Shown here: positions 19,826-49,239 of the stretch, piece by piece
How the letters are laid out: the number at the start of each line of letters is the position of its first letter
How positions within the stretch are numbered: the stretch's first letter is position 1
Notes under the pieces: model-generated
The model's database searches: none
Told to the model about the DNA's origin: nothing
What the model saw: only the letters and a program-made list of their open reading frames with translations
Source of the DNA: a bacterium
GTDB taxonomy: Bacteria; JAJVIF01
DNA: 64,000 nucleotides
Direction: 5' to 3'
Assembly (NCBI GenBank): GCA_022072165.1
Contig: JAJVIF010000001.1
Location: forward strand, 1,258,598-1,322,597
Program-made: the position numbers and the translations under genes

Positions 19826-19902
19826 TGGCGCGCCAGGCAGGACTCGAACCTGCGACCATCGGCTTAGAAGGCCGGTGCTCTATCCAACTGAGCTACTGGC
19901 GC
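19826..19902 (-). tRNA. tRNA-Arg (anticodon TCT)
   Basis: The reverse complement reads GCGCCAGTAGCTCAGTTGGATAGAGCACCGGCCTTCTAAGCCGATGGTCGCAGGTTCGAGTCCTGCCTGGCGCGCCA. Cloverleaf elements are present, the anticodon loop is CTTCTAA, and the T-loop is GGTTCGAGTCC. Coordinates are +/-1. Confidence 0.85.
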
Positions 19903-29232: not shown

Positions 29233-29526
29233 GTGCCACGCAATGACTACGAAAGTGCCCTGGGCATGATTGAAACCAAAGGGCTGGTCGGCGCCATTGA
29301 AGCGGCTGACGCTATGGTGAAGGCGGCCCGGGTCACGCTGACCGGCAAAGAAACCATCGGCGGGGGGTATGTGACCGTCTTTGTCCGCGGCGAAGTCGGC
29401 GCGGTCCGGGCAGCCACCGATGCCGGAGCTGCGGCGGCGCAGCGGGTGGGCGAACTGGTGTCCGTCCATGTGATCCCGCGTCCGCACGACGAAGTGGAAA
29501 TGCTCCTCCCCCAGCCCAAGGGCTAG
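29233..29526 (+). CDS. BMC-H shell protein (Pfam00936-type hexamer)
   Basis: [32 protein letters not shown]...[46 protein letters not shown] start with AAGGAG 13 nt upstream. Confidence 0.9.
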
Positions 29527-29544: not shown

Positions 29545-30117
29545 ATGGCCACAGGACAGGGATCCCAGCCCATGGCGGCGCTGGGCCTCATTGAGACTAT
29601 CGGTGCCGTCGGTGGCATCGAAGCGGCGGATGCTGCGCTGAAAGCAGCCAGGGTCCGGCTGATTGGCAAGGAATACGCCGATGCCGGACTCCACCTGATC
29701 AAGCTGGTCGGCGAAGTAGCGGCGGTCCGTGCGGCGGTGGATGCTGGCGCGGCGGCGGCGCAGCGGGTCGGACAGCTCGCCGGGACCCATGTGATTCCCC
29801 GTCCCGACATCCAACTCGAAGCCTGGATGTTTGCTCCTACCGGCAGCCCCAAAGCGATGGCCTTTACTCGTGCTCCCGAACTTGGCCAGCGTGCCACCGG
29901 GAGTGGCGATGATGATGGGAGCACGGATGAAGCGCCGGCAGCCACTCCTGGCGTGCTCCCAGCAGACTTTGCCGAGCTCCCGGTCCGGGAACTCCGGGGC
30001 GTCGTCCGGACCTTGCCGGATTTCCCGCTCCAGGGACGGCAGGTCTCGACCGCCACCCGCGAACAGTTACTTGATGCCATCCGCGAATGGCAGGCACGTC
30101 CGGGCGCTGGGGGGTAA
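29545..30117 (+). CDS. BMC-H shell protein with a ~95-aa C-terminal extension
   Basis: Canonical BMC domain (AALGLIETIGAVGGIEAADAALKAARVRLIGKE...), then an acidic low-complexity linker and a predicted helical tail. Confidence 0.85.
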   Translation: MATGQGSQPMAALGLIETIGAVGGIEAADAALKAARVRLIGKEYADAGLHLIKLVGEVAAVRAAVDAGAAAAQRVGQLAGTHVIPRPDIQLEAWMFAPTGSPKAMAFTRAPELGQRATGSGDDDGSTDEAPAATPGVLPADFAELPVRELRGVVRTLPDFPLQGRQVSTATREQLLDAIREWQARPGAGG

Positions 30118-30120
30118 GCC

Positions 30121-31659
30121 ATGCCCCTGGACCGCGATCTCGCCTCGATGCAGGAAGTCCGCGATCTGGTCGGACGGGCGGTGGCCGCCCAGCAGCAGAT
30201 GATGGGGCTGGATCAGGCCGCGATTGACCGCATTGTCGAGGCGATGGCAGAAGCGGGATACCGGGCTTCCGCGCAGTTGGGACAGCTCGCCTGGGAAGAG
30301 ACCACCTACGGCAATCCGGGCGACAAGCGGGTCAAGAATGAGTTTGGATCCCGGTCCATCGGCGAAGCGATCCGGGGGATGCGGACCATCGGGTATCTCG
30401 GGGAGCAACCAGCCACCCGGATCCGGGAATTCGCCTGGCCCTATGGGGTCATCGGGGCCATCACTCCGACGACCAATCCCACCAGCACAATCATGTACAA
30501 GGCGATCATCGCCGTGAAGTCGGGCAACGCGCTGGTGGCGTCGCCGCATCCCCATGCGGTCCGCTCCAGTTGCGCCGCCATGGATGTCGTGGGCCGGGCC
30601 GCGGAAGCGGCGGGCCTCCCCAGTGGTGCACTCGGCTGTATCTCGCAGCCGACCATGGCGGGAACCCAGGAGTTGATGCGTCATCCGCAGGTCGATCTGA
30701 TCCTGGCGACCGGCGGCAAGGAGATGGTGAAGGCTGCCTATTCCTCAGGAAAGCCCGCTTATGGAGTCGGGCCGGGGAATGTCCCGGTCTATGTCGACCG
30801 GTCAGCGGATGTCGCCACCGCCGCCCAAAGAATTGTTCAGGGGAAAACCTTCGACTGGGGCACCCTCTGTTCGTCCGAGCAGTGCATCGTCGCGGATCGT
30901 CCCATCGCCGATGCCCTGCGGCGGGCACTGGAAGAAACGGGAGGCTACTTCCTCTCGCCGGAGCAAAAACGGGCGGTGGAGCAGGTCCTCATTGAGCCGA
31001 GCGGCCGGGTGAATGTGAAGCTGATCGGTCATCCTCCACAGGCCATCGCCGAGGCGGCAGGCTTTCGGGTGGAAAGCCAGGTCCGGGCGCTGATTGCGCC
31101 GATCGATGAAGTAGGGCGTCGCGAGCCCCTGTCGCTGGAAAAGCTGTCGCCGGTCCTGGCCTTTACGGTCCGGGAGGGCTGGGAAGCCGGCTGTCATACC
31201 TGCATCGACCTGCTGCATGTGGGAGGCGAGGGGCATACCCTGGGTCTCTACTGCCAGGATGAGCAAATCATCATGGAGTTCGGACTCAAAAAGCCGGTGT
31301 TCCGTATTTGTGTGAATACCCCCACGTCGATCGGTGCGGTGGGCGTCACGACCGGCCTCTTCCCGGCGATGACCCTCGGGTGTGGTGCCCCGGGGGGCAA
31401 CATCACGTCGGACAACATCGGCCCGCAGCATCTCTACAACAAGAAGCGTCTGGCGTTTCATTTGCGCGATGTCGCGCCAGCCGCCGCGCCGTCACCAACG
31501 GCGATGGCTCCAGGACGCCCTGGTCCAGGTGGGGGTTTCTCAGCGGTCACCGCCTGTTCGCCGCTGCATCCCACCGGATGCGACACCTCCAGCTTCCACG
31601 GGCTGACTGAGCGGGACATCGAAGCGATCCTCGCGCAGATGTCCGGCGGACGGCGCTAG
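30121..31659 (+). CDS. CoA-acylating aldehyde dehydrogenase (EutE/PduP-like) with a C-terminal encapsulation-peptide-like extension
   Basis: ALDH fold with catalytic Cys in the GTLCSSEQC context. A Pro/Ala/Gly-rich linker is followed by the amphipathic LTERDIEAILAQMSG at the C-terminus. Confidence 0.85.
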   Translation: MPLDRDLASMQEVRDLVGRAVAAQQQMMGLDQAAIDRIVEAMAEAGYRASAQLGQLAWEETTYGNPGDKRVKNEFGSRSIGEAIRGMRTIGYLGEQPATRIREFAWPYGVIGAITPTTNPTSTIMYKAIIAVKSGNALVASPHPHAVRSSCAAMDVVGRAAEAAGLPSGALGCISQPTMAGTQELMRHPQVDLILATGGKEMVKAAYSSGKPAYGVGPGNVPVYVDRSADVATAAQRIVQGKTFDWGTLCSSEQCIVADRPIADALRRALEETGGYFLSPEQKRAVEQVLIEPSGRVNVKLIGHPPQAIAEAAGFRVESQVRALIAPIDEVGRREPLSLEKLSPVLAFTVREGWEAGCHTCIDLLHVGGEGHTLGLYCQDEQIIMEFGLKKPVFRICVNTPTSIGAVGVTTGLFPAMTLGCGAPGGNITSDNIGPQHLYNKKRLAFHLRDVAPAAAPSPTAMAPGRPGPGGGFSAVTACSPLHPTGCDTSSFHGLTERDIEAILAQMSGGRR

Positions 31660-31672
31660 GGCACCGGGCTCT

Positions 31673-32329
31673 ATGGACCCGCTGCCCGGTATGCTGGAAC
31701 CGAAAGGCTCCTTCGATGCCTGGATGATGGTGAATGGAGCCTACTTAGGGGGTGGGTTCCTCGGACTGATCGCCCTCGTCATTCTCTCTATCGCGATTCT
31801 GAGCTTCCTTGAAATCCGACTCTCCCGGCGGGTGGATAGCAGGATGGAGTTCTATGCCCAGACGGTCGGGGAAGTGTTGAAATCAAAACTGATTGAAGGG
31901 CGCAGTCGCCACGGCACCCGGTACTACGTCCCCGTCATTGAGTATCAGTATCAGGTGGACGGCAAAACCTACAAGAGTCACCGCATTTACCCTGCGGAGT
32001 TCGGCGAGAGTGTCGATAAAGCCTGGGGCGAGCAGCTGGTCGCGAATTTTCCAGTCGGCCTACATTTCATGGTCTACTTCGACCCGGAGCGACCACGAGA
32101 CTGCGTGGTGATCCGCGACCCCTCCATGGTGAAGCGGTCTGTCACCGGCCACCTGGTCATGGGGATCCTGATGGTGATTACCGCTGTCTGGATCATCTGG
32201 GCGGTCTTCACCAAAATCCTGCCCGAGGCGGGGAAGCCGCTGCCGCAGGACTGGTATGGCGAGAATGTGCAGGTGGAATCCCCCTGGACCATGGAACCTG
32301 TGCCGCAAATCTTGCAGCCATCGCCCTGA
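31673..32329 (+). CDS. DUF3592-like membrane protein embedded in the BMC operon
   Basis: Two TM helices flank a beta-rich domain (YYVPVIEYQYQVDGKTYKS...VYFDPERP). Confidence 0.55.
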   Translation: MDPLPGMLEPKGSFDAWMMVNGAYLGGGFLGLIALVILSIAILSFLEIRLSRRVDSRMEFYAQTVGEVLKSKLIEGRSRHGTRYYVPVIEYQYQVDGKTYKSHRIYPAEFGESVDKAWGEQLVANFPVGLHFMVYFDPERPRDCVVIRDPSMVKRSVTGHLVMGILMVITAVWIIWAVFTKILPEAGKPLPQDWYGENVQVESPWTMEPVPQILQPSP

Positions 32330-32390: not shown

Positions 32391-32699
32391 ATGACCGCTC
32401 CGCATGAGACCGCCCTCGGACTGGTGGAAACCAAAGGACTCATCGCCGCCATCGAGGCGGCTGATGCGATGGTGAAGGCTGCGCGGGTGACCCTGGTCGG
32501 CAAAGAGAAAATTGGTGCGGGGTTTGTCACGGTCATGGTGCGCGGCGATGTCGGGGCGGTCCGGGCTGCCACAGATGCCGGGGCTGCCGCTGCGGATCGC
32601 GTAGGGCAGCTGGTGTCGGTGCATGTGATTCCGCGTCCGCATGGCGATGTTGAAGAGATCCTGCCGAATCACGGCCAGCCGCCTGCCCCAGCTAAATAG
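32391..32699 (+). CDS. BMC-H shell protein
   Basis: [77 protein letters not shown]. Confidence 0.9.
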
Positions 32700-32701
32700 G
32701 G

Positions 32702-33556
32702 ATGCATGTAGCGACCCTTGGGTCTCCCTGGACAGGGTCAGCACCGCGCCGCAGGTGGCATGTATTCGCACTACTCCTAACCTGCCTCATCACTGGGCCA
32801 GTCAGCGCTGATCCCCTCCCCTTTCCCACCGCCGCAGAACTCGGTCGCACCATTGATCAGTTCAATGGTCCCTGCGGTCATGCCGATGGCGATGGTGTCC
32901 TCTCCGGCACACTCCTCCTGCTGGCCCCCTTGGGGCATCACTTCACTTTCACGGCCACCATCGTCGAGTGCGACTCTATGCAGCGTCGCCCACTGACTGA
33001 ACGGGAAGCGCTGTTTGAATGGCTGGGTGTGTATGACCAGCGTCGGGATGAAGCCTGGACCTGGCTCGCCGACGCGCTGCAATCGCAACCGCAACAGGTG
33101 GGGTCCACCCTGCGTCGTGGGGCACTGATCCTGTTGCTCCAGGAATCCCCGGAACGGGTCGCGCAAATGCGCCCACTGCTGCGTCAGCAGGCTGATCCCG
33201 CCACGATTCGGCTGGCCCTGACCATGGAGGGGGGGCAGTATCTGGACCCCTTCGCCCGAGGACTCGGTCGGGACCTGGATGCCACCGGCACGCTCTATCG
33301 CGCAGCATTTGCTGACCTTGGGATCCTTCCGCTGTGCGACAACTGCCCCTCAGAGCCGCGTGGCACTGATGTGGAACAAGCCTGGGCGTTTATGTTCCTT
33401 TCACTCCACCCGCGTCAGCAACCCCGGGAGCTGCCTGCTCGCCTGGCAGAGAGCTGGTACCGCCCCTATTTGCAGCAATACACCGACGGCTCACTGCTGG
33501 AGCGATCGCTGGCGGCCGTGGTACTCTGGCGGCTGCATCCGACGGAGTCACGCTAA
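32702..33556 (+). CDS. Hypothetical protein (284 aa) translationally coupled inside the BMC operon
   Basis: ATG 3 nt after the BMC-H stop; the next gene's ATG is 3 nt after its own stop. Hydrophobic N-terminal segment and a possible HEAT-like helical repeat region. No recognisable enzyme motif. Confidence 0.5.
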   Translation: MHVATLGSPWTGSAPRRRWHVFALLLTCLITGPVSADPLPFPTAAELGRTIDQFNGPCGHADGDGVLSGTLLLLAPLGHHFTFTATIVECDSMQRRPLTEREALFEWLGVYDQRRDEAWTWLADALQSQPQQVGSTLRRGALILLLQESPERVAQMRPLLRQQADPATIRLALTMEGGQYLDPFARGLGRDLDATGTLYRAAFADLGILPLCDNCPSEPRGTDVEQAWAFMFLSLHPRQQPRELPARLAESWYRPYLQQYTDGSLLERSLAAVVLWRLHPTESR

Positions 33557-33558
33557 CT

Positions 33559-34362
33559 ATGCCCACCTCGCCCTGCGCCTGTGTCGCCCCGCTTCCGGGC
33601 CTGCCGCCGATCCCAATTCGGCGGATACGGGCCTATGCCCAGCTTTCCCGTGAAGCGATGGACGCCCTCTTTGGTCGAGGGAGCACGCTGACAGTGCTCC
33701 GCGATTTGGGTGAGCGTCCGTTCTTTGTCGCGAATCAGCAGATTCGGCTCTGCGGGATCGATGGGAGCACACAGGCGATCTCGGTTGTCGGGCCGATTGC
33801 GGCTATGACAGAGATCGTGCTGAGTCCGCTGGTGGCTGCTGCTGCTCGACTCGCGCCGCCCGTGCGGGTGCCCGGCGATCAGGACGAAACCGATGGGGGC
33901 TGCCTGCGGGGACCGTCGGGGGATTACCACCTGGATGACGGCATCCTGGTGCTCCGGCCACATCTCGTGCTCCCAGCGCAGCTTGCCGCAGCGACTGGGA
34001 TGGCTCAGGGTGATGAAGTCGCGGTCTGGCTGCCAGGAAGCGCGCCAATCGTGCTCCCGCAGGTTCCGTGCATGCTCCGTGATGTCCGGGATCCGGAGAT
34101 GCGCGTGGATGCTGATCTCGCGAACCGGGTGCAAACGCCAGATGGGGCGACCGCCACCGTGCTCCCGCGCCTCAGCGAACCGGTTGCGCCTGGGATCGGG
34201 GGGGTGCATGCCCCGCTGCCGGTCATCACGGAGGCCGATATCGTCAGGGCACACCTCGCTGGCAAGACCCTTCGGGCGGATCAGGGGACCATCGTGACCC
34301 CTGCAGCACAGGAAGCGGACCGGCGGTACCATGTGCTCGTGCCCCCACCAGCGGGGCGGTAA
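33559..34362 (+). CDS. PduL-like phosphotransacylase (PTAC) homolog with diverged metal-site motifs
   Basis: Two-repeat PduL architecture with the LFG motif (AQLSREAMDALFG) and a V(V/L)GP block. The positions of the RHxH motifs read RAYAQ and RPHLV. Confidence 0.6.
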   Translation: MPTSPCACVAPLPGLPPIPIRRIRAYAQLSREAMDALFGRGSTLTVLRDLGERPFFVANQQIRLCGIDGSTQAISVVGPIAAMTEIVLSPLVAAAARLAPPVRVPGDQDETDGGCLRGPSGDYHLDDGILVLRPHLVLPAQLAAATGMAQGDEVAVWLPGSAPIVLPQVPCMLRDVRDPEMRVDADLANRVQTPDGATATVLPRLSEPVAPGIGGVHAPLPVITEADIVRAHLAGKTLRADQGTIVTPAAQEADRRYHVLVPPPAGR

Positions 34363-34387: not shown

Positions 34388-34720
34388 ATGTTTCTGGGAC
34401 GCGTGGTGGGGTCAGTCTGGGCCACCAAGAAGACCGAAAGCCTTGAGGGCCTCCGGCTGCTGATCGTGCAACCATTTGATTTGCGGCTCGACCCCAACAC
34501 CGCAGTAGTCGTCGCTGCCGACACTATCGGCGCAGGCGTGGATGAAGTCGTCATCGTCGCCTATGGACGGGCGGCACGGCTGGCGACCGGCAATGTCAAT
34601 GCCGCGTTGGAAGCGGCGGTCGTCGGGATTGTCGATGCGGTGGACCTCCAGCGCCTGGAAGGTGCTCCAGAACTCTCTGCGGCAGCGCAGTCCTTCCTCG
34701 CTCCTCGCTCCCGGAGCTGA
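34388..34720 (+). CDS. BMC-P vertex protein (EutN/CcmL/PduN family)
   Basis: MFLGRVVGSVWATKKTESLEGLRLLIVQP...DTIGAGVDEVVIVAYGRAAR. GGGAGG RBS 9 nt upstream. Confidence 0.8.
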   Translation: MFLGRVVGSVWATKKTESLEGLRLLIVQPFDLRLDPNTAVVVAADTIGAGVDEVVIVAYGRAARLATGNVNAALEAAVVGIVDAVDLQRLEGAPELSAAAQSFLAPRSRS

Positions 34721-34951: not shown

Positions 34952-35599
34952 ATGCCGTCACAAGGCCTGTCCAAAAGCGACCGGGGTGATCTCTTGGTGC
35001 TGGGTTTGCTGCAAAGCAGGCCGCGTCATGGTTATGAGTTAAAGCGTCTGCTGGGACAGTCCCTGGCGGGCATCGGACGCCCGGTGGCATCCACGCTGTA
35101 CTACACCCTGAAACGGCTGCACCGGGCGGGGAGCATCACTACTGAGAGTGCCCTCGGACCCACCGGGCAGTTTGCGCCCCGGAGTATCTGGGAAATGACC
35201 GCCACCGGTCGGGGATCGTTGGAGACCCTGTGTCATAAAGCGCTAGACGATCTGACCTGCCCCGCGCCGCTGACCTTCGGGGTCCTGCTGGCTGAAGAAC
35301 GCTCTGCAGCGGAACTGCGCCGGTTGCTGCAACAGCGACATGCCCGTCTGCTCCGCGAAACGCAGCTGCTCGTCAGAGATTCCAACAACCAGGCTGACCG
35401 GTGCCTGATTTCGATGTATCAGCTCTGTCAGCAGCAACTCGGGCTCGAACTGGGATGGATCGATGGCTTGCTGCAGCACCCGGCGATGGGGACACCGGCA
35501 GACCATGGGTCGGAATCTGCACCAGCTGACACGAACTGGCTGGAGGCCTTCGCCCCGCCTTCGCTCGCATGTGCTCCCACCATGTCCGAGGGCCACTAA
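34952..35599 (+). CDS. PadR-family transcriptional regulator with a C-terminal extension
   Basis: LLVLGLLQSRPRHGYELKRLL...STLYYTLKRLHRAGSI winged-helix PadR signature. Preceded by an AT-rich region. Confidence 0.75.
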   Translation: MPSQGLSKSDRGDLLVLGLLQSRPRHGYELKRLLGQSLAGIGRPVASTLYYTLKRLHRAGSITTESALGPTGQFAPRSIWEMTATGRGSLETLCHKALDDLTCPAPLTFGVLLAEERSAAELRRLLQQRHARLLRETQLLVRDSNNQADRCLISMYQLCQQQLGLELGWIDGLLQHPAMGTPADHGSESAPADTNWLEAFAPPSLACAPTMSEGH

Positions 35600-39196: not shown

Positions 39197-39592
39197 ATGC
39201 CATCCATCGACCGTCTGGCACTCCGCCTGGATCTGCGAGGGCATACCCCGATTTTCGTGCAGTTGGTTGACGGGATTAAGTACCACATTGCCACAGGCGG
39301 GTTGGTGCCCGGCGACCAGCTCCCACCAGTCCGGCGGCTGGCCGATCATCTTGGGATCAACCCTAACACGGTCGATCGGGCGTATCAGGAGCTGATTCGC
39401 CTGCAACTGGCAGAGTCTCAGCATGGGCGTGGGACATTCATTACCGGGACCCTGCCGCCGGAGACGCCCCCCAAGGACCGGGAAGCGCGTCGAGACGCCG
39501 CAATCCGCGACCTCGTGACCTCTCTCTCGGAGCTGGGCTTCAGCAAAACGGAGATTTTGACGGCGGTGATTCAGCAGCTGCATCTGGAGTAG
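39197..39592 (+). CDS. GntR-family (YtrA-like, short) transcriptional regulator
   Basis: PIFVQLVDGIKYHIATGGLVPGDQLPPVRRLADHLGINPNTVDRAYQELIRLQLAESQHGRGTFI winged HTH, with only ~45 aa C-terminal to it. Confidence 0.7.
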   Translation: MPSIDRLALRLDLRGHTPIFVQLVDGIKYHIATGGLVPGDQLPPVRRLADHLGINPNTVDRAYQELIRLQLAESQHGRGTFITGTLPPETPPKDREARRDAAIRDLVTSLSELGFSKTEILTAVIQQLHLE

Positions 39593-39683
39593 CGGTCCCC
39601 ACTCCCCCTCTTGATTGCCCATATGTATCAGGTCACCGGTACAATATTAACCTTCGCGCTTCACACGCCGTATACTCCCTCCA

Positions 39684-40664
39684 ATGTCCGCCGACCTCGC
39701 CCGCTTCGCCATTCCGGTCACGACCCCGGCCGATCCGGGGGCCTGGCGGGATGATCCGTTTCTCTGGGGCATCGAAGCACTTGCGCTGACCAACGGGACC
39801 GGGGTCCCGTCTGATTCTTTGCTGCGCCTCCTGGGAGGCGGAGCCTTTGTGTTCGCGGCTTGCATTAGCTGTTGTCCCTACTGGTGGCTTGGGGCAGGGA
39901 AGGCACGACGCCGTTATGCCCTGGGGACCGCTTTGGGATGGAACATCACGCACATCACCGCCGATGGGACACAAGCTGCCTACGAAGCGCTCCTGAAGGG
40001 TCCCCTGACCCAGGAACTGACCTTTGGGCGCGCCCTGCTGGCCTACGGGGGCTGGCCCGGCGAAGCGCAGTATCACTGGGGTCTGGTGACCGCCACCGCC
40101 GAGGGGCATTGTCCTGCGGGACTCACCCCCTTCACCGGCGAGGAACTCGTCGTGATGCCCAGCTGGCCCTATCGCCTGGTGCTGGCGGACCCGGTGGGGC
40201 AGCCGGTGCCGCCCCTCGCCGCGACACTGGAGCAGGCACTGAGCGATGCGTCGCGGCACTGGGACGACGTAGTGGGGCAGGAGGCTGGCGATGCCGCCCC
40301 GGAATCGCAGTGGCATTCTGGTGCGGCGGCGCTGCAGATCCTGCAGAAGCGGCTGGCCAGGCAGGACCCGTTCTGTGATCAGTGCGCAGACTCCTCGTGC
40401 CTGTCGGCGCTGATTCAGGGGTGGGCCGCGAACCTGAAGCAGGGAAGCGCATGTCTTATAGCGGCAGATGCGGTGCTGCAGGCACCAGAACTGACGAACC
40501 TCGCCAGCGACTGGCGCACGATGGGGGAAGACCTGCAGTCCGCAGCAACAGTTCCAGCCGATCCAGGCGCACTGGCACGAGTGGTGGATCGCTGGAGTGA
40601 GATGTACACCGAGTGCAGAGCCCGTCTGGACACCTGGCTTCAGACACGGGCAGGAGGTGAATGA
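39684..40664 (+). CDS. Hypothetical protein, Cys-rich
   Basis: Clear ORF, first in a coupled trio with the AKR and NUDIX genes. No motif recognised. Confidence 0.4.
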   Translation: MSADLARFAIPVTTPADPGAWRDDPFLWGIEALALTNGTGVPSDSLLRLLGGGAFVFAACISCCPYWWLGAGKARRRYALGTALGWNITHITADGTQAAYEALLKGPLTQELTFGRALLAYGGWPGEAQYHWGLVTATAEGHCPAGLTPFTGEELVVMPSWPYRLVLADPVGQPVPPLAATLEQALSDASRHWDDVVGQEAGDAAPESQWHSGAAALQILQKRLARQDPFCDQCADSSCLSALIQGWAANLKQGSACLIAADAVLQAPELTNLASDWRTMGEDLQSAATVPADPGALARVVDRWSEMYTECRARLDTWLQTRAGGE

Positions 40665-41668
40665 TGCGATACGTGCAGTTGGGACGCACTGGACTCTCCA
40701 CCAGTGAAATCGGATTCGGTGCCTGGGCCATCGGCGGCAATCAGTACGGCAACTCCTATGGCCACACCGATGATGTCACGAGCAAGGCCGCTGTTCATGC
40801 GGCCCTGGAGTGCGGCATCAACTTCTTTGATACCGCCGATGTGTATGGCTACGGCCATTCCGAGGAGGTCCTGGGAGCAGCCCTCAAGGGAGCCGACTTT
40901 GGACTCCCCCCCATCATCGCGACCAAAGTGGGCGGCAATTTTTATCAGGGCCAGACGCGGATGGACTTCAGTCCGGACTATCTCCGCTTCGCAGTCGACC
41001 AGTCGTTGCGCCGGTTGCAGATCGACCGGATCGATCTCTATCAGTTGCATAACCCCAGCGCTGAGATCATCGCGGCGGGCGCGGTCATCGACACCCTCGA
41101 GGAGCTGCAGGCTGCCGGCAAGATCGGACACATTGGCGTGTCGGTGTTCACGCCGGACGAGGCGATGGCCTGTCTTGGGGATGACCGGGTCGCATCGATT
41201 CAGCTGGTCTACAACCTGCTGCGACGGGAGATGGAGTCGCAGGTCCTCGAAACCGCGCAATTGCGCCATGTGGCCATCATTGCCCGGGAGCCGCTGGCCA
41301 ACGGGTTCCTGGCGGGACGCCGGTCGCCGCAGGACGAGTTTGAGCCTGGCGACATCCGGTACTCGATGCCGGCGGGGTACAAATCGCAGCTGGCGGGAGC
41401 GGCCGCCTATGTCCGGGAGGTTCTGGAAGCCATCGATGGGCCACAGGGAGTCCGGACGCTGGCGCAGGTTGCCCTGCAGTTCGTGATTCGCCATCCTGCG
41501 GTGAGCGTGGTGATCCCGGGGGCAAAGAAGGCCAGCCAGGTGATCGAAAATGCCCATGTCAGCGACCTTGGTCCGCTGGAAGGGGCCTTCATCACCTCCC
41601 TCTTCGGTCCGGACTACCAGCAGGCGGACCCAGCCCAAAAGCCCTATCAGGAGCTCCCCATCGCATGA
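40661..41668 (+). CDS. Aldo/keto reductase
   Basis: MRYVQLGRTGLSTSEIGFGAWAIGG...INFFDTADVYGYGHSEEVLG and IIATKVG motifs. Confidence 0.85.
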   Translation: MMRYVQLGRTGLSTSEIGFGAWAIGGNQYGNSYGHTDDVTSKAAVHAALECGINFFDTADVYGYGHSEEVLGAALKGADFGLPPIIATKVGGNFYQGQTRMDFSPDYLRFAVDQSLRRLQIDRIDLYQLHNPSAEIIAAGAVIDTLEELQAAGKIGHIGVSVFTPDEAMACLGDDRVASIQLVYNLLRREMESQVLETAQLRHVAIIAREPLANGFLAGRRSPQDEFEPGDIRYSMPAGYKSQLAGAAAYVREVLEAIDGPQGVRTLAQVALQFVIRHPAVSVVIPGAKKASQVIENAHVSDLGPLEGAFITSLFGPDYQQADPAQKPYQELPIA

Positions 41669-42108
41669 CAGCAGCTATCGAAGTGATTGCCCGGGCCGTG
41701 ATACAGCGCGAAGGACATGTACTGCTGACACGACGGGTCGGGGGGAGCTATGTCTTTCTGCCGGGAGGACACATCGAGCCGGGCGAAGCAGCGGTGACCG
41801 CCCTGGTCCGGGAGATCGACGAAGAACTGGGAACGCAACTCGACGTCCGGCGCTTTTTGGGGGTCGTTGAGCACCAGTACAGCCGCGGCGACACCACCAC
41901 ACACGAGGTGAATCTGCTCTTTGAGGGGAGTGCTCCGGCGCTCCCCTTCCCTGCTTCCCCGGAAAGCCGGGAGCCCCGATTCGAGTTTTGGTGGGAGCGT
42001 GTCGATGGCCTGGCCGAGTGCGGGCTGGAACCCTCTGTACTTCGGGACGATCTGGCGACGTGGCTCTTCGCACAAGGAGCAGGGCGCTTCGGCAGCACTC
42101 TGCGGTAG
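41665..42108 (+). CDS. NUDIX hydrolase
   Basis: NUDIX box GGHIEPGEAAVTALVREIDEELG. Confidence 0.75.
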   Translation: MTAAIEVIARAVIQREGHVLLTRRVGGSYVFLPGGHIEPGEAAVTALVREIDEELGTQLDVRRFLGVVEHQYSRGDTTTHEVNLLFEGSAPALPFPASPESREPRFEFWWERVDGLAECGLEPSVLRDDLATWLFAQGAGRFGSTLR

Positions 42109-47124: not shown

Positions 47125-49239
47125 ATGAGTGAACGCCCTGCCCCGACCGGTCTCGATGCCCTCTTTGCCCCCCGGGGAGTCGCCATCATCGGCGCTTCCC
47201 GCGAAGAACACACCATCGGTCGGGAGATTCTGGAGAATCTGATTGGCGCGGGATTCCAGGGACCGATTTTCCCGGTGAATCCCAAGGCTCCCTGGGTCAA
47301 CAGCCTCAAGTGCTACCCCTCCGTGACCACCATTCCCGACCCGGTGGATCTCGCCATCATCGTGGTGCCATGCGTCCATGTCCCGGGCGTATTGCGCGAA
47401 TGCGGGCAGCAGGGGATCCGGGGGGCAGTGATTATCTCCAACGGCTTCAAAGAGGTGGGAGGCGAGGGCATCGCCCGGGAAGAGGAACTGCTGGCGATCG
47501 CGGCGGAATATGGCATCCGGCTGATTGGTCCGAACTGCATGGGGATTCTGAACATGGACCCCGCCATCGGGCTGAATGCATCGTTTGCCAAAGCCGTCCC
47601 GACCCCGGGTGCGGTGGGCTTTATGTCGCAGTCCGGAGCGCTCGGCGAAACGATTCTGAATGTCGCGGAAGATCTGGGCCTGGGACTGGCCCAGTTTGTC
47701 AGTCTCGGCAACATGGCCGATGTCGATGGGCTGGAGCTGCTGGAGTACTGGGGCAAAAATCCCGACATCCGGCTCGTGATGATGTATCTCGAGCAGCTGA
47801 GTGAGCCGCATCGCTTCATCGACATCGCGAGTCAGGTGACACGCCACAAGCCGGTGGTGGTGGTGAAGGCCGGACGCTCCCCCCAGGGGGCCCGGGCGGT
47901 AGCCTCGCATACCGGGAGTCTGGCGGGCAGTGACGTCGGACGAGTCCATCTGTTCGAGCAGTGCGGCGTACTACGGGCAGAGCGGATGGAGGAACTCTTC
48001 GACATCGGGATGCTGCTGGTGAGTCAGCCCCTCCCCCGGGGGAATCGGGTCGGGATCGTGACAAACAGTGGTGGTCCCGGGATTCTGGCTACCGACGCCC
48101 TCATCGCAAACGGCCTCCAGGTCTCGCCGCTGAGTCCCCGGACCCGGGACAATCTGCGTCTGCGGGTCCCGACAGGGGCCTCGCTGAATAATCCCGTCGA
48201 CCTCACCGCTGGCGCGACTTCGCAGCATTTCCGCCTCGCCATCGAAGCGCTGCTGCAGGACCCGCTTATCGACATCCTCATGGTTGTCTTCATCAGTCCG
48301 GTGATGCTAAATGCGGCCGAAGTGGCGGACTATATCGTGCAGGGCGCGGGAGTCACCGACAAGCCCGTGGTGACTGTCTTTATGAACGAACGGCAGGGCG
48401 AAGACGCGGTGCGTCGGCTGCAACAGGCCGGGATCCCCAACTATCGCTTCCCGGAGTCGGCAGCCCGGGCGCTGGCAAGTCTGACCTGGTACGCCGACTA
48501 TCTGTCCCAGCCTGCAGGAGAGCGTCGGGCTTTCGACTTTGATGTCCCGGCGCTCAAAGCCCTGCTGGCGCAGGCGGCACCCGATGGCTGGCTGCCGTTT
48601 GATCTCGCCATGGAGTTACTGGGCCTTATCGGTATTCCGACGGTTCGGTCCCGGTTCGTGGACCGGGAGGCTGCGCCACCGCCCGAGGGAGCGTATACCG
48701 TGGTGCTGAAAACCATCAGCCCCAAGTTACAGCACAAGTCCGACGCGGGGGGAGTCGTAGTGGGAATTGCCGATGCCGCGCACTGGACCACCGCATTAGC
48801 GGCCATGCACGAACGCTTGCGGCAGGCGGGCCTCCAGCCGGCGGACTACCGGATTCTGGAACAGGAGCAGGTACCCGGCGGCGAAGAGATCATCATCGGT
48901 GTCAGTCGGGAAGACTCGCTGGGGCATCTGATCATGTTTGGGCTGGGGGGGACTACGGTCGAAGTCCTGAAGGATGTCGTCTTCCGGCTGCATCCCCTCA
49001 CGACCCTGCAGGCAGCCAAGATGGTCCGGGAGATTCAGGGACTTCCTCTGCTCACCGGGTTCCGGGGCCGGACTCCGACGGACCTGGACTTTGCCGAGGA
49101 ACTCCTGTTACGGGTCAGCGCCCTGCTGGAAGTCTGCCCGGAGATTGTGGAACTGGACCTGAATCCGTTCATGCTGACCGACCAGGCGGCAAGCAGCCGG
49201 GCGGTGGATGTCCGTCTCCGGGTGGCGACGAGCGAGTAA
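47125..49239 (+). CDS. Acetyl-CoA synthetase (ADP-forming), fused alpha/beta (NDP-forming acyl-CoA synthetase)
   Basis: CoA-binding N-terminus (VAIIGASREEHTIGREIL), ligase-CoA domain (GPNCMGILN) and a C-terminal ATP-grasp domain. Confidence 0.8.
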   Translation: MSERPAPTGLDALFAPRGVAIIGASREEHTIGREILENLIGAGFQGPIFPVNPKAPWVNSLKCYPSVTTIPDPVDLAIIVVPCVHVPGVLRECGQQGIRGAVIISNGFKEVGGEGIAREEELLAIAAEYGIRLIGPNCMGILNMDPAIGLNASFAKAVPTPGAVGFMSQSGALGETILNVAEDLGLGLAQFVSLGNMADVDGLELLEYWGKNPDIRLVMMYLEQLSEPHRFIDIASQVTRHKPVVVVKAGRSPQGARAVASHTGSLAGSDVGRVHLFEQCGVLRAERMEELFDIGMLLVSQPLPRGNRVGIVTNSGGPGILATDALIANGLQVSPLSPRTRDNLRLRVPTGASLNNPVDLTAGATSQHFRLAIEALLQDPLIDILMVVFISPVMLNAAEVADYIVQGAGVTDKPVVTVFMNERQGEDAVRRLQQAGIPNYRFPESAARALASLTWYADYLSQPAGERRAFDFDVPALKALLAQAAPDGWLPFDLAMELLGLIGIPTVRSRFVDREAAPPPEGAYTVVLKTISPKLQHKSDAGGVVVGIADAAHWTTALAAMHERLRQAGLQPADYRILEQEQVPGGEEIIIGVSREDSLGHLIMFGLGGTTVEVLKDVVFRLHPLTTLQAAKMVREIQGLPLLTGFRGRTPTDLDFAEELLLRVSALLEVCPEIVELDLNPFMLTDQAASSRAVDVRLRVATSE

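Follow-up and report, generated by a model that had tools for sequence, protein, structure and literature searches.

What keeps a phosphotransacylase (PTAC) gene in a bacterial microcompartment (BMC) operon when its product appears to have lost the residues of catalysis? The question is raised by a 64,000-nucleotide stretch of DNA from an uncultured bacterium, here called the window (GTDB lineage JAJVIF01; GenBank assembly GCA_022072165.1, contig JAJVIF010000001.1, positions 1,258,598 to 1,322,597 of the forward strand), in which a protein related to PduL is encoded among shell-protein genes. PduL is regarded as the dedicated coenzyme A (CoA)-recycling core enzyme of catabolic microcompartments. 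The gene concerned is the following.

33559-34362, + strand: PduL-like (PF06130) gene, 267 amino acids; fold intact, zinc and phosphate sites largely replaced.

On balance, this gene probably encodes a PduL-derived pseudoenzyme that is retained as a structural part or adaptor in the microcompartment core. The residues give high confidence that zinc-dependent conversion of acyl-CoA and inorganic phosphate to acyl-phosphate and CoA would no longer be possible for the protein. Purifying selection nonetheless keeps the gene, whose position in a rare microcompartment operon is fixed.

The protein matches the Pfam PTAC family PF06130 with 86.5 bits (E=2.5e-24; cut-off 25 bits), its residues 28-191 covering profile positions 10-173 of 176. 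Against the NCBIfam model NF011652 (phosphate propanoyltransferase) it scores 89.5 bits, below the cut-off of 209 bits and hence short of the curated PduL threshold. A phmmer search of all PDB sequences matched a single protein, the PduL of Rhodopseudomonas palustris (5CUO/5CUP; 5cuo_A E=2.7e-20). The AlphaFold2 model, built from a 54-sequence alignment, has a mean predicted local distance difference test score (pLDDT) of 88.5, with 89-98 in the core. Foldseek placed it on chains A and B of 5cuo (E~1e-21, target-normalised template-modelling score 0.92-0.93, root-mean-square deviation 1.5 Å over 184 columns), and beyond 5cuo no PDB entry came near significance. The double beta-barrel PduL fold is complete in this model. 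A sequence-only reading of the same DNA had assigned the protein a two-repeat PduL architecture with an LFG block, and the Pfam score, the superposition on 5CUO and the block itself (L37-F38-G39) bear this out. Structural positions of the canonical enzyme (L59-F60-G61, G100-P101, G128, G140, G143, A165 and D206; 5CUO numbering, used below for canonical residues) are kept.

In R. palustris PduL, H48, H50 and E109 coordinate Zn1, H157, H159 and H204 coordinate Zn2, and Arg103 and Ser127 position phosphate; the metal-coordinating residues are reported to be absolutely conserved, and Arg103 to be present in all PduL homologues (Erbilgin, Sutter and Kerfeld 2016, PMC4784909). The alignment of the window protein to 5cuo_A runs ungapped for 168 residues (query residue = chain residue + 10) and lays AYAQLS on RHIHLS and RPHLVLP on RHIHMHP. 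The sites compare as follows, the clade being the window protein with the closely related P0001-P0006 (six 90%-identity clusters).

33634-33642, + strand: Y26-A27-Q28, in place of the first H-x-H; the Zn1 ligands H48 and H50 become Y26 and Q28, whose codons TAT and CAG are each one base from a His codon.
33799-33819, + strand: A81...E85-I-V87, in place of R103...Q107-x-E109; the phosphate residue R103 becomes A81 and the Zn1 ligand E109 becomes V87, so that neither the phosphate Arg nor the Zn1 Glu remains; every clade member has E85 and V87.
33871-33888, + strand: P105-G-D-Q-D-E110, a clade-invariant acidic loop in place of canonical S127-G-x-L-x-x; the phosphate residue S127 becomes P105.
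33961-33969, + strand: H135-L-V137, in place of H157-x-H159; the Zn2 ligand H157 is kept as H135, which is invariant, and the Zn2 ligand H159 becomes V137, a position that is V or R in the clade.
34102-34104, + strand: R182, at the position of H204 (a Zn2 ligand that also contacts CoA); variable in the clade as R, I, L or W.

Five of the six metal ligands are replaced, and H157 is the sole survivor. The positions of Gln107, Arg184 and Arg194 have changed as well. The same equivalences come from the pairwise alignment to 5CUO, from a profile alignment of 156 homologues and from superposition of the AlphaFold2 model. The sequence-only reading had proposed, if its alignment held, that the RHxH metal motifs of the two repeats are replaced by RAYAQLS and RPHLVL. 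The alignment does hold by pairwise, profile and structural comparison, and both strings are present (R24-A-Y26-A-Q28-L-S30 and R133-P-H135-L-V137-L). The proposal stands for Y26, Q28 and V137, but not for H135, the first His of the second motif. The structure-guided alignment to the R. palustris enzyme that it had suggested yields the five replacements above and takes the loss well past the two motifs, to E109, H204, Arg103, Ser127, Gln107, Arg184 and Arg194.

It had also been foreseen that a proper alignment might find the His and Glu ligands at shifted positions. The catalytic core (residues 18-200) contains just two histidines, H124 and H135, the former not conserved in the clade, and no conserved cysteine. 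Because the core holds only two histidines, a site of five His and one Glu at shifted positions is impossible whatever the alignment. Shifted ligands were therefore rejected on the agreement of three alignments together with the two-histidine core, and histidine content alone is enough to exclude them.

How unusual is this loss within the family? When 1.84 billion representative proteins were searched exhaustively with HMMER, 666 matched at E<=1e-3, three of them at E<=1e-30. Ligand columns were compared in one profile of 156 sequences, made up of the best 150 of these 666 matches, earlier matches and the 5CUO fragment. In it 137 sequences read HHEHHH, and the remainder are mostly truncated; the ligand positions are 99-100% conserved in the aligned homologues, Arg103 100% and Ser127 97%. 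Loss of five ligands among these 156 is confined to the clade, whose ligand strings are YQVHVR and, in more distant members, xRVHV(I/-) or YQVHR-. This agrees with the expectation of the sequence-only reading that such a change would be unusual for the acyl-CoA-recycling core enzyme. Positions R47, H48, H50, Q74, G76, R103, Q107, E109, D114 and L118, together with S127, A154, H159, R184, R194, H204 and E209, are 85-100% conserved in the canonical family, and all are lost in the clade. The ligand loss is far beyond chance. A profile search with the clade alignment added no members, returning mostly canonical-type PduLs of about 350 amino acids (the few named ones from Gemmatimonadota), and a scan of GTDB species genomes returned just distant PduLs of 27-33% identity. 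No report of a PduL pseudoenzyme or inactive PduL was found in the searchable literature.

The nearest relative outside the clade is P0008, on metagenome contigs L013 and L014, with 34% identity overall. It shares with the window protein a near-identical REAMDALFG.GS.LTVLR segment and the C-terminal domain, and its short contigs have the order homologous unknown protein, PTAC, EutN and PadR. Unlike the window protein, P0008 has five of the six ligands (H204 is Gln) as well as R103, S127 and R194, and it scores 238.6 bits against NF011652, above the cut-off. Because P0008 combines the same gene order with five ligands, R103, S127 and a passing PduL score, the loss most likely arose within this organelle type, from a canonical-looking ancestor.

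Two further PduLs are degenerate in part. P0039 (L019 8001-8627; CP023434.1, GCA_003546865.1, a complete genome) reads YHVHSH, three of six ligands being lost (H48Y, E109V and H159S), and also carries Q107E and S127N; its EUT2-type operon also encodes a Pta-type (PF01515) phosphotransacylase (L019 12581-13651). P0031 (L015 559-1997; also L016 and L017) reads YLAHHH: the Zn1 site is lost (H48Y, H50L and E109A), S127 is Pro, and Zn2 is kept. On three independent metagenome contigs its gene is followed by an overlapping 4HBT thioesterase gene, and in a neighbour-joining tree P0031 groups beside the window clade. By analogy, the presence of P0039 and P0031 beside genes for another CoA-freeing enzyme supports retention of PduL for a reason that would not be catalytic. 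H48Y and E109V recur between the window protein and P0039; H to Y, H to Q and E to V are single-base changes, so that this recurrence is mutationally cheap.

These relatives bear on a wider and more tentative reading. PduL may have a second, non-catalytic role in metabolosome biogenesis, either core nucleation or the tethering of cargo to shell, and dead forms might arise repeatedly once CoA recycling passes elsewhere. The recipients would be Pta in the EUT operon of CP023434.1, the thioesterase beside P0031 and possibly an ADP-forming acyl-CoA synthetase in the window. The window clade would then stand at the end-point of a PduL loss series, as a natural separation-of-function allele. A more radical variant, no less tentative, would make the rebuilt acidic pocket a new cation- or amine-binding or catalytic site of this organelle.

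Judged by the aligned residues, the di-zinc site has been erased, together with the cationic residues for holding CoA and phosphate, and the region is now partly acidic. Positive charge was lost at R103, R184 and R194, and negative charge was gained through Q107E and the invariant PGDQDE loop. The CoA-contact positions S45, K70, R97, L99, H204 and N211 read I, R, S, V, R and N in the window protein; the changes from K70 to Arg and from L99 to Val are conservative, N211 is retained, and the R97 position is Arg in three other clade members. On these residues turns the suggestion, thought quite unlikely, that the protein is a non-catalytic carrier of CoA or acyl-CoA which loads a private CoA pool during compartment assembly. 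Such a role has been put forward for PduL on the ground that it co-purifies with CoA. CoA was captured in the PduL crystal, and a 1:1 CoA:PduL stoichiometry in the lumen is possible (PMC4784909); the suggestion also gains from the Arg at the K70 position being invariant in the clade, from the L99 and N211 positions, and from Arg at the R97 position in three of the six clade members. It loses from the disappearance of Zn1, which binds the CoA sulfur, from S45 to I, H204 to R, I, L or W, R103 to A and R194 to M, which strip away most contacts and positive charge, and from the acidic residues gained near the phosphate site.

Is the gene under selection at all? In each of the six clusters, which reach down to 45% identity, the open reading frame is complete and synteny is preserved. 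Against the orthologue on contig L012 (89% identical), the ratio of nonsynonymous to synonymous substitution rates (dN/dS) is 0.17; in the same comparison it is 0.055 for the aldehyde dehydrogenase of the operon, 0.01-0.03 for the shell proteins, 0.21 for the unknown protein encoded just upstream and 0.18 for the DUF3592 protein. In the deeper lineages identity is 46-56% for the PduL-like protein, 76-78% for the aldehyde dehydrogenase and 88-90% for the shell proteins. The PduL-like protein is thus constrained, though far less tightly than the aldehyde dehydrogenase and the shell. A decaying pseudogene was considered and rejected on the dN/dS value, the intact orthologues and the confident model.

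The frame begins with ATG, two nucleotides past the TAA that ends the upstream gene. For identical or near-identical copies, public annotations (NCBI MCG3151818.1 and one Logan contig) place the start 45 codons further downstream, which gives 222 amino acids. MCG3151818.1 is annotated as 'hypothetical protein', and the PduL-like protein is thus unannotated as deposited. The PLPGLPPIPIRRIRAY...REAMDALFG block at the N-terminus is common to orthologues with as little as 45% identity. Strong conservation of the first 45 residues across these orthologues shows that the long start at 33559 is correct, not the 222-residue call. Gene decay, or an error in gene calling or alignment, would find some comfort in a dN/dS about three times that of the aldehyde dehydrogenase and in the shortened 'hypothetical protein' record for an identical cluster member. 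Set against full-length frames in all six clusters, conserved N-termini, the level of dN/dS, the model and the fixed operon position, this explanation is scarcely credible. The operational marks of a pseudoenzyme are present together: homology to an enzyme family, loss of the catalytic residues, a kept fold and purifying selection across lineages.

The pattern of constraint within the protein bears on whether the old pocket has been abandoned or rebuilt. In the clade one-third (33%) of the core columns do not vary, and former catalytic and CoA-binding positions show no enrichment (7 of 18 invariant). Several of the latter drift: H50 is Q or R, R103 A or V, H159 V or R, R184 A, Q or E, R194 M, L or V, and H204 R, I, L or W. 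Residues 13-135, the N-terminal two-thirds, are well conserved. Residues 140-200, the former Zn2 barrel, are the most variable, with a 21-residue insertion in P0005 and deletions in P0006. Such a pattern fits loss of an active site with retention of another surface. Across lineages of 45-57% identity, Y26, E85, V87, P105, D107, Q108, D109, E110, D126, D127 and H135 are all invariant.

This last set is the best argument for the main rival of the pseudoenzyme, a neofunctionalised enzyme or ligand binder with a remodelled acidic pocket rebuilt from Tyr26, Glu85, His135, Asp184 and the PGDQDE and DD loops. Such a protein would bind a cation or cationic substrate, or would catalyse a zinc-independent reaction such as acyl-CoA hydrolysis or transfer to another acceptor. 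The shift of the pocket from cationic to acidic is not random, and H48Y, Q107E and E109V recur in the unrelated P0039. Against this, half of the old active-site positions drift and invariance there equals the background; the other wall of the pocket is formed by a poorly conserved barrel with indels; the H to Y, H to Q and E to V changes are easily repeated by mutation; and an acidic pocket is ill-suited to CoA thioesters, with their three phosphates. The conservation statistics favour the pseudoenzyme or scaffold, and a rebuilt site is considered rather unlikely. The sequence-only reading, which had hedged between a pseudoenzyme or scaffold and a different active site, is supported in that hedged form: the statistics lean to its first alternative, and the invariant PGDQDE loop keeps the second alive.

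The setting of the gene is an operon of eight genes on the + strand, of which the PduL-like gene is the seventh, with a regulator after it.

29233-29526, + strand: BMC-H shell protein, 97 amino acids; first gene of the operon.
29572-30117, + strand: BMC-H shell protein, 181 amino acids, with a conserved C-terminal extension of about 90 amino acids.
30121-31659, + strand: CoA-acylating aldehyde dehydrogenase, 512 amino acids; TIGR02518-like, 532 bits over residues 4-453.
31673-32329, + strand: DUF3592 protein, 218 amino acids; in most loci of the type, duplicated in L007 and absent in L009.
32391-32699, + strand: BMC-H shell protein, 102 amino acids.
32702-33556, + strand: unknown Cys-rich protein, up to 284 amino acids (start codon uncertain); always directly upstream of the PduL-like gene.
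34388-34720, + strand: BMC-P (EutN/CcmL) vertex protein, 110 amino acids.
34952-35599, + strand: PadR-family regulator; follows the operon in all related loci that extend far enough.
47125-49239, + strand: ADP-forming acyl-CoA synthetase, 704 amino acids; 12.7 kb downstream of the operon.

All related contigs (L005-L012 and L018) show this gene order. A scan of the operon for promoters and terminators gave background level. The Cys-rich protein has invariant GPCGH, VEC and CxxCPxE motifs, which suggest a metal or redox site, and a hydrophobic, signal-peptide-like N-terminus, which is odd for a lumen protein. It has no Pfam or NCBIfam match; its AlphaFold2 model has a pLDDT of just 62, and a Foldseek comparison with the PDB yielded no match below E=0.4. 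Its family forms six clusters among 5.8 billion proteins, all in this locus type, and on that count the locus type is rare.

In the aldehyde dehydrogenase, the catalytic Cys motif FDWGTLCSSEQ is present and the C-terminal tail ACSPLHPTGCDTSSFHGLTERDIEAILAQM is conserved. Pfam had covered just residues 8-272 of it; a dead aldehyde dehydrogenase was ruled out by the TIGR02518 alignment and the Cys motif. The tail (31510-31656) follows the pattern ACSPxHPxGCDTxSFHGLTExDIEAILAQM(S/A)G(G/A)RR, a Cys/His/Cys mini-motif and then a helix like an encapsulation peptide. Cys and His residues thus occur in three products of the operon: CxC in the N-terminus of the PduL-like protein, four Cys and one His in the Cys-rich protein, and Cys/His/Cys in the aldehyde dehydrogenase tail. 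They hint at metal- or disulfide-mediated assembly of the core. The distal part of the extension on the 181-residue BMC-H protein, LPVRELRxxVRxLPxFPLQGRQVSxAT, is conserved in comparison with L009, and the extension may be an ordered domain for docking.

An intact acylating aldehyde dehydrogenase beside a PduL-like protein in the PduL slot of the operon invites the idea of a working phosphotransacylase with a metal-independent, Pta-like mechanism. A tblastn search of the 64-kb window for a second PduL, a Pta or a 4HBT thioesterase found none. That no other phosphotransacylase was seen in the window lends the idea some weight; this absence holds for the 64 kb covered. The nucleophile-activating metals, Arg103 and Ser127 are all gone, and a PTAC is not obligatory, since many catalogued metabolosomes have none: in the part of the Sutter 2021 supplement drawn on here, many described BMC types with an aldehyde dehydrogenase, among them MIC, HO and ACI, have no PTAC. 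A metal-independent phosphotransacylase is accordingly rated very unlikely.

Among the enzymes seen in the window, just one could free CoA from acyl-CoA: the ADP-forming acyl-CoA synthetase, a possible stand-in for the PTAC and kinase steps. Its homologue (L009 9705-11825) directly adjoins PadR in L009, the most divergent related locus. The link between operon and synthetase is weak and suggestive only. Elsewhere in the window, the block 39197-42108 carries a GntR regulator, an unknown 326-residue protein, an aldo/keto reductase and a NUDIX hydrolase. This block also lies about 5 kb downstream of the operon in L007, L010, L012 and L018, and is not in the 12.6-kb L009 contig. A single tRNA gene (19829-19902, - strand) is the sole Rfam match in the window.

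The two ends of the protein are as follows.

33559-33618, + strand: N-terminal 20 residues, MPTSPCACVAPLPGLPPIPI; Pro-rich, with a CxC motif, conserved in five of the six clade members.
34219-34338, + strand: C-terminal domain of about 40 residues, VITEADIVRAHLAGK...TIVTPAAQEADRRYHV, following a low-confidence linker (residues 203-220).

DSSP of the model gives no amphipathic helix for the N-terminal 20 residues, and this end does not look like a classical N-terminal encapsulation peptide. At the other end, residues 221-260 form a beta-alpha-beta-alpha unit in the AlphaFold2 model. This module is also found on many canonical PduLs, including P0007, P0008, P0009 and P0011, and across PduLs it follows the pattern (I/L)TExD(V/I)...G......(I/L)(I/V)TPxAxD. 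No Pfam match was obtained for it in four examples; in one canonical PduL it matches the C-terminus of TIGR02536 ('eut_hyp', an ethanolamine-utilisation hypothetical family). Its first helix, ITEADIVRAHLAG, resembles the terminal helix of the aldehyde dehydrogenase, LTERDIEAILAQM, and the module may be a targeting or assembly element.

The mechanism proposed for the pseudoenzyme is held with moderate confidence in its structural part. The protein would be retained for a non-catalytic job, probably one that canonical PduL also does; that job would be to organise the enzyme core (aldehyde dehydrogenase and Cys-rich protein) or tether it to the shell, by interactions through the well-conserved residues 13-135 and the C-terminal module. 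More speculatively, CoA release would pass to another enzyme, for example the nearby ADP-forming acyl-CoA synthetase, or to exchange across the shell, and the organelle would then be, in function, a 'metabolosome with an incomplete core'.

Several points weigh against this account. Inactivity is deduced from the residues, and the case for a scaffold is made by exclusion and analogy. Four of the replaced positions (Y26, E85, V87 and P105) are invariant in the clade, and PGDQDE with D126-D127 would make a strictly conserved acidic patch near the old phosphate site, as expected of a remodelled pocket for a ligand or cation. The clade is small, effectively four lineages, which leaves the conservation statistics weak. 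The protein is without a classical amphipathic N-terminal encapsulation peptide. Finally, the acyl-CoA synthetase lies 12.7 kb away with unrelated genes between, and just in L009 is it adjacent to the locus.

Canonical PduL (5CUO/5CUP) and the window protein have in common the two-beta-barrel fold, the LFG, GP and G-x-x-G motifs, His157 and Asp206, and a place in a microcompartment operon with an acylating aldehyde dehydrogenase and a BMC-P protein. Unlike canonical PduL, the window protein has H48, H50, E109, H159, H204, R103, S127, Q107, R184 and R194 replaced and carries the PGDQDE loop; it lacks the N-terminal amphipathic encapsulation peptide and has a higher evolutionary rate than the operon's other cargo and shell proteins. 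In carboxysomes, scaffold parts such as the gamma-carbonic-anhydrase domain and RbcS-like repeats of CcmM show an enzyme fold that organises cargo instead of catalysing a reaction. CcmM differs from the PduL-like protein in fold, organelle type and partners, and the scaffold role of the latter is one that we infer.

Like the PTAC-less types in the part of the Sutter 2021 supplement drawn on, the window locus combines shell proteins and an aldehyde dehydrogenase with the probable lack of a working phosphotransacylase, and no signature enzyme is obvious. Unlike them, it keeps the PTAC gene as a relic, has a minimal shell (three BMC-H, a single BMC-P, no BMC-T) and includes the DUF3592 protein and a lineage-specific Cys-rich protein. 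Its gene combination matches none of the new locus types described in parts 1-3 of the 6 parts of Supplementary Data 2 of Sutter 2021. A term search of the Sutter 2021 supplementary files found neither 'PadR' nor 'DUF3592'.

A locus classification based on Pfam would score the core of this operon as complete, and the core is probably incomplete. The locus appears to record a transition from a complete to an incomplete metabolosome core, and so bears on how CoA is recycled in microcompartments that have no PTAC. A PduL kept by selection without its zinc site raises the point that the PduL fold may act in the organelle beyond catalysis, a role directly testable with the window protein and with the partly degenerate PduL of CP023434.1. 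The value of the window protein lies in its being a natural separation-of-function form of PduL.

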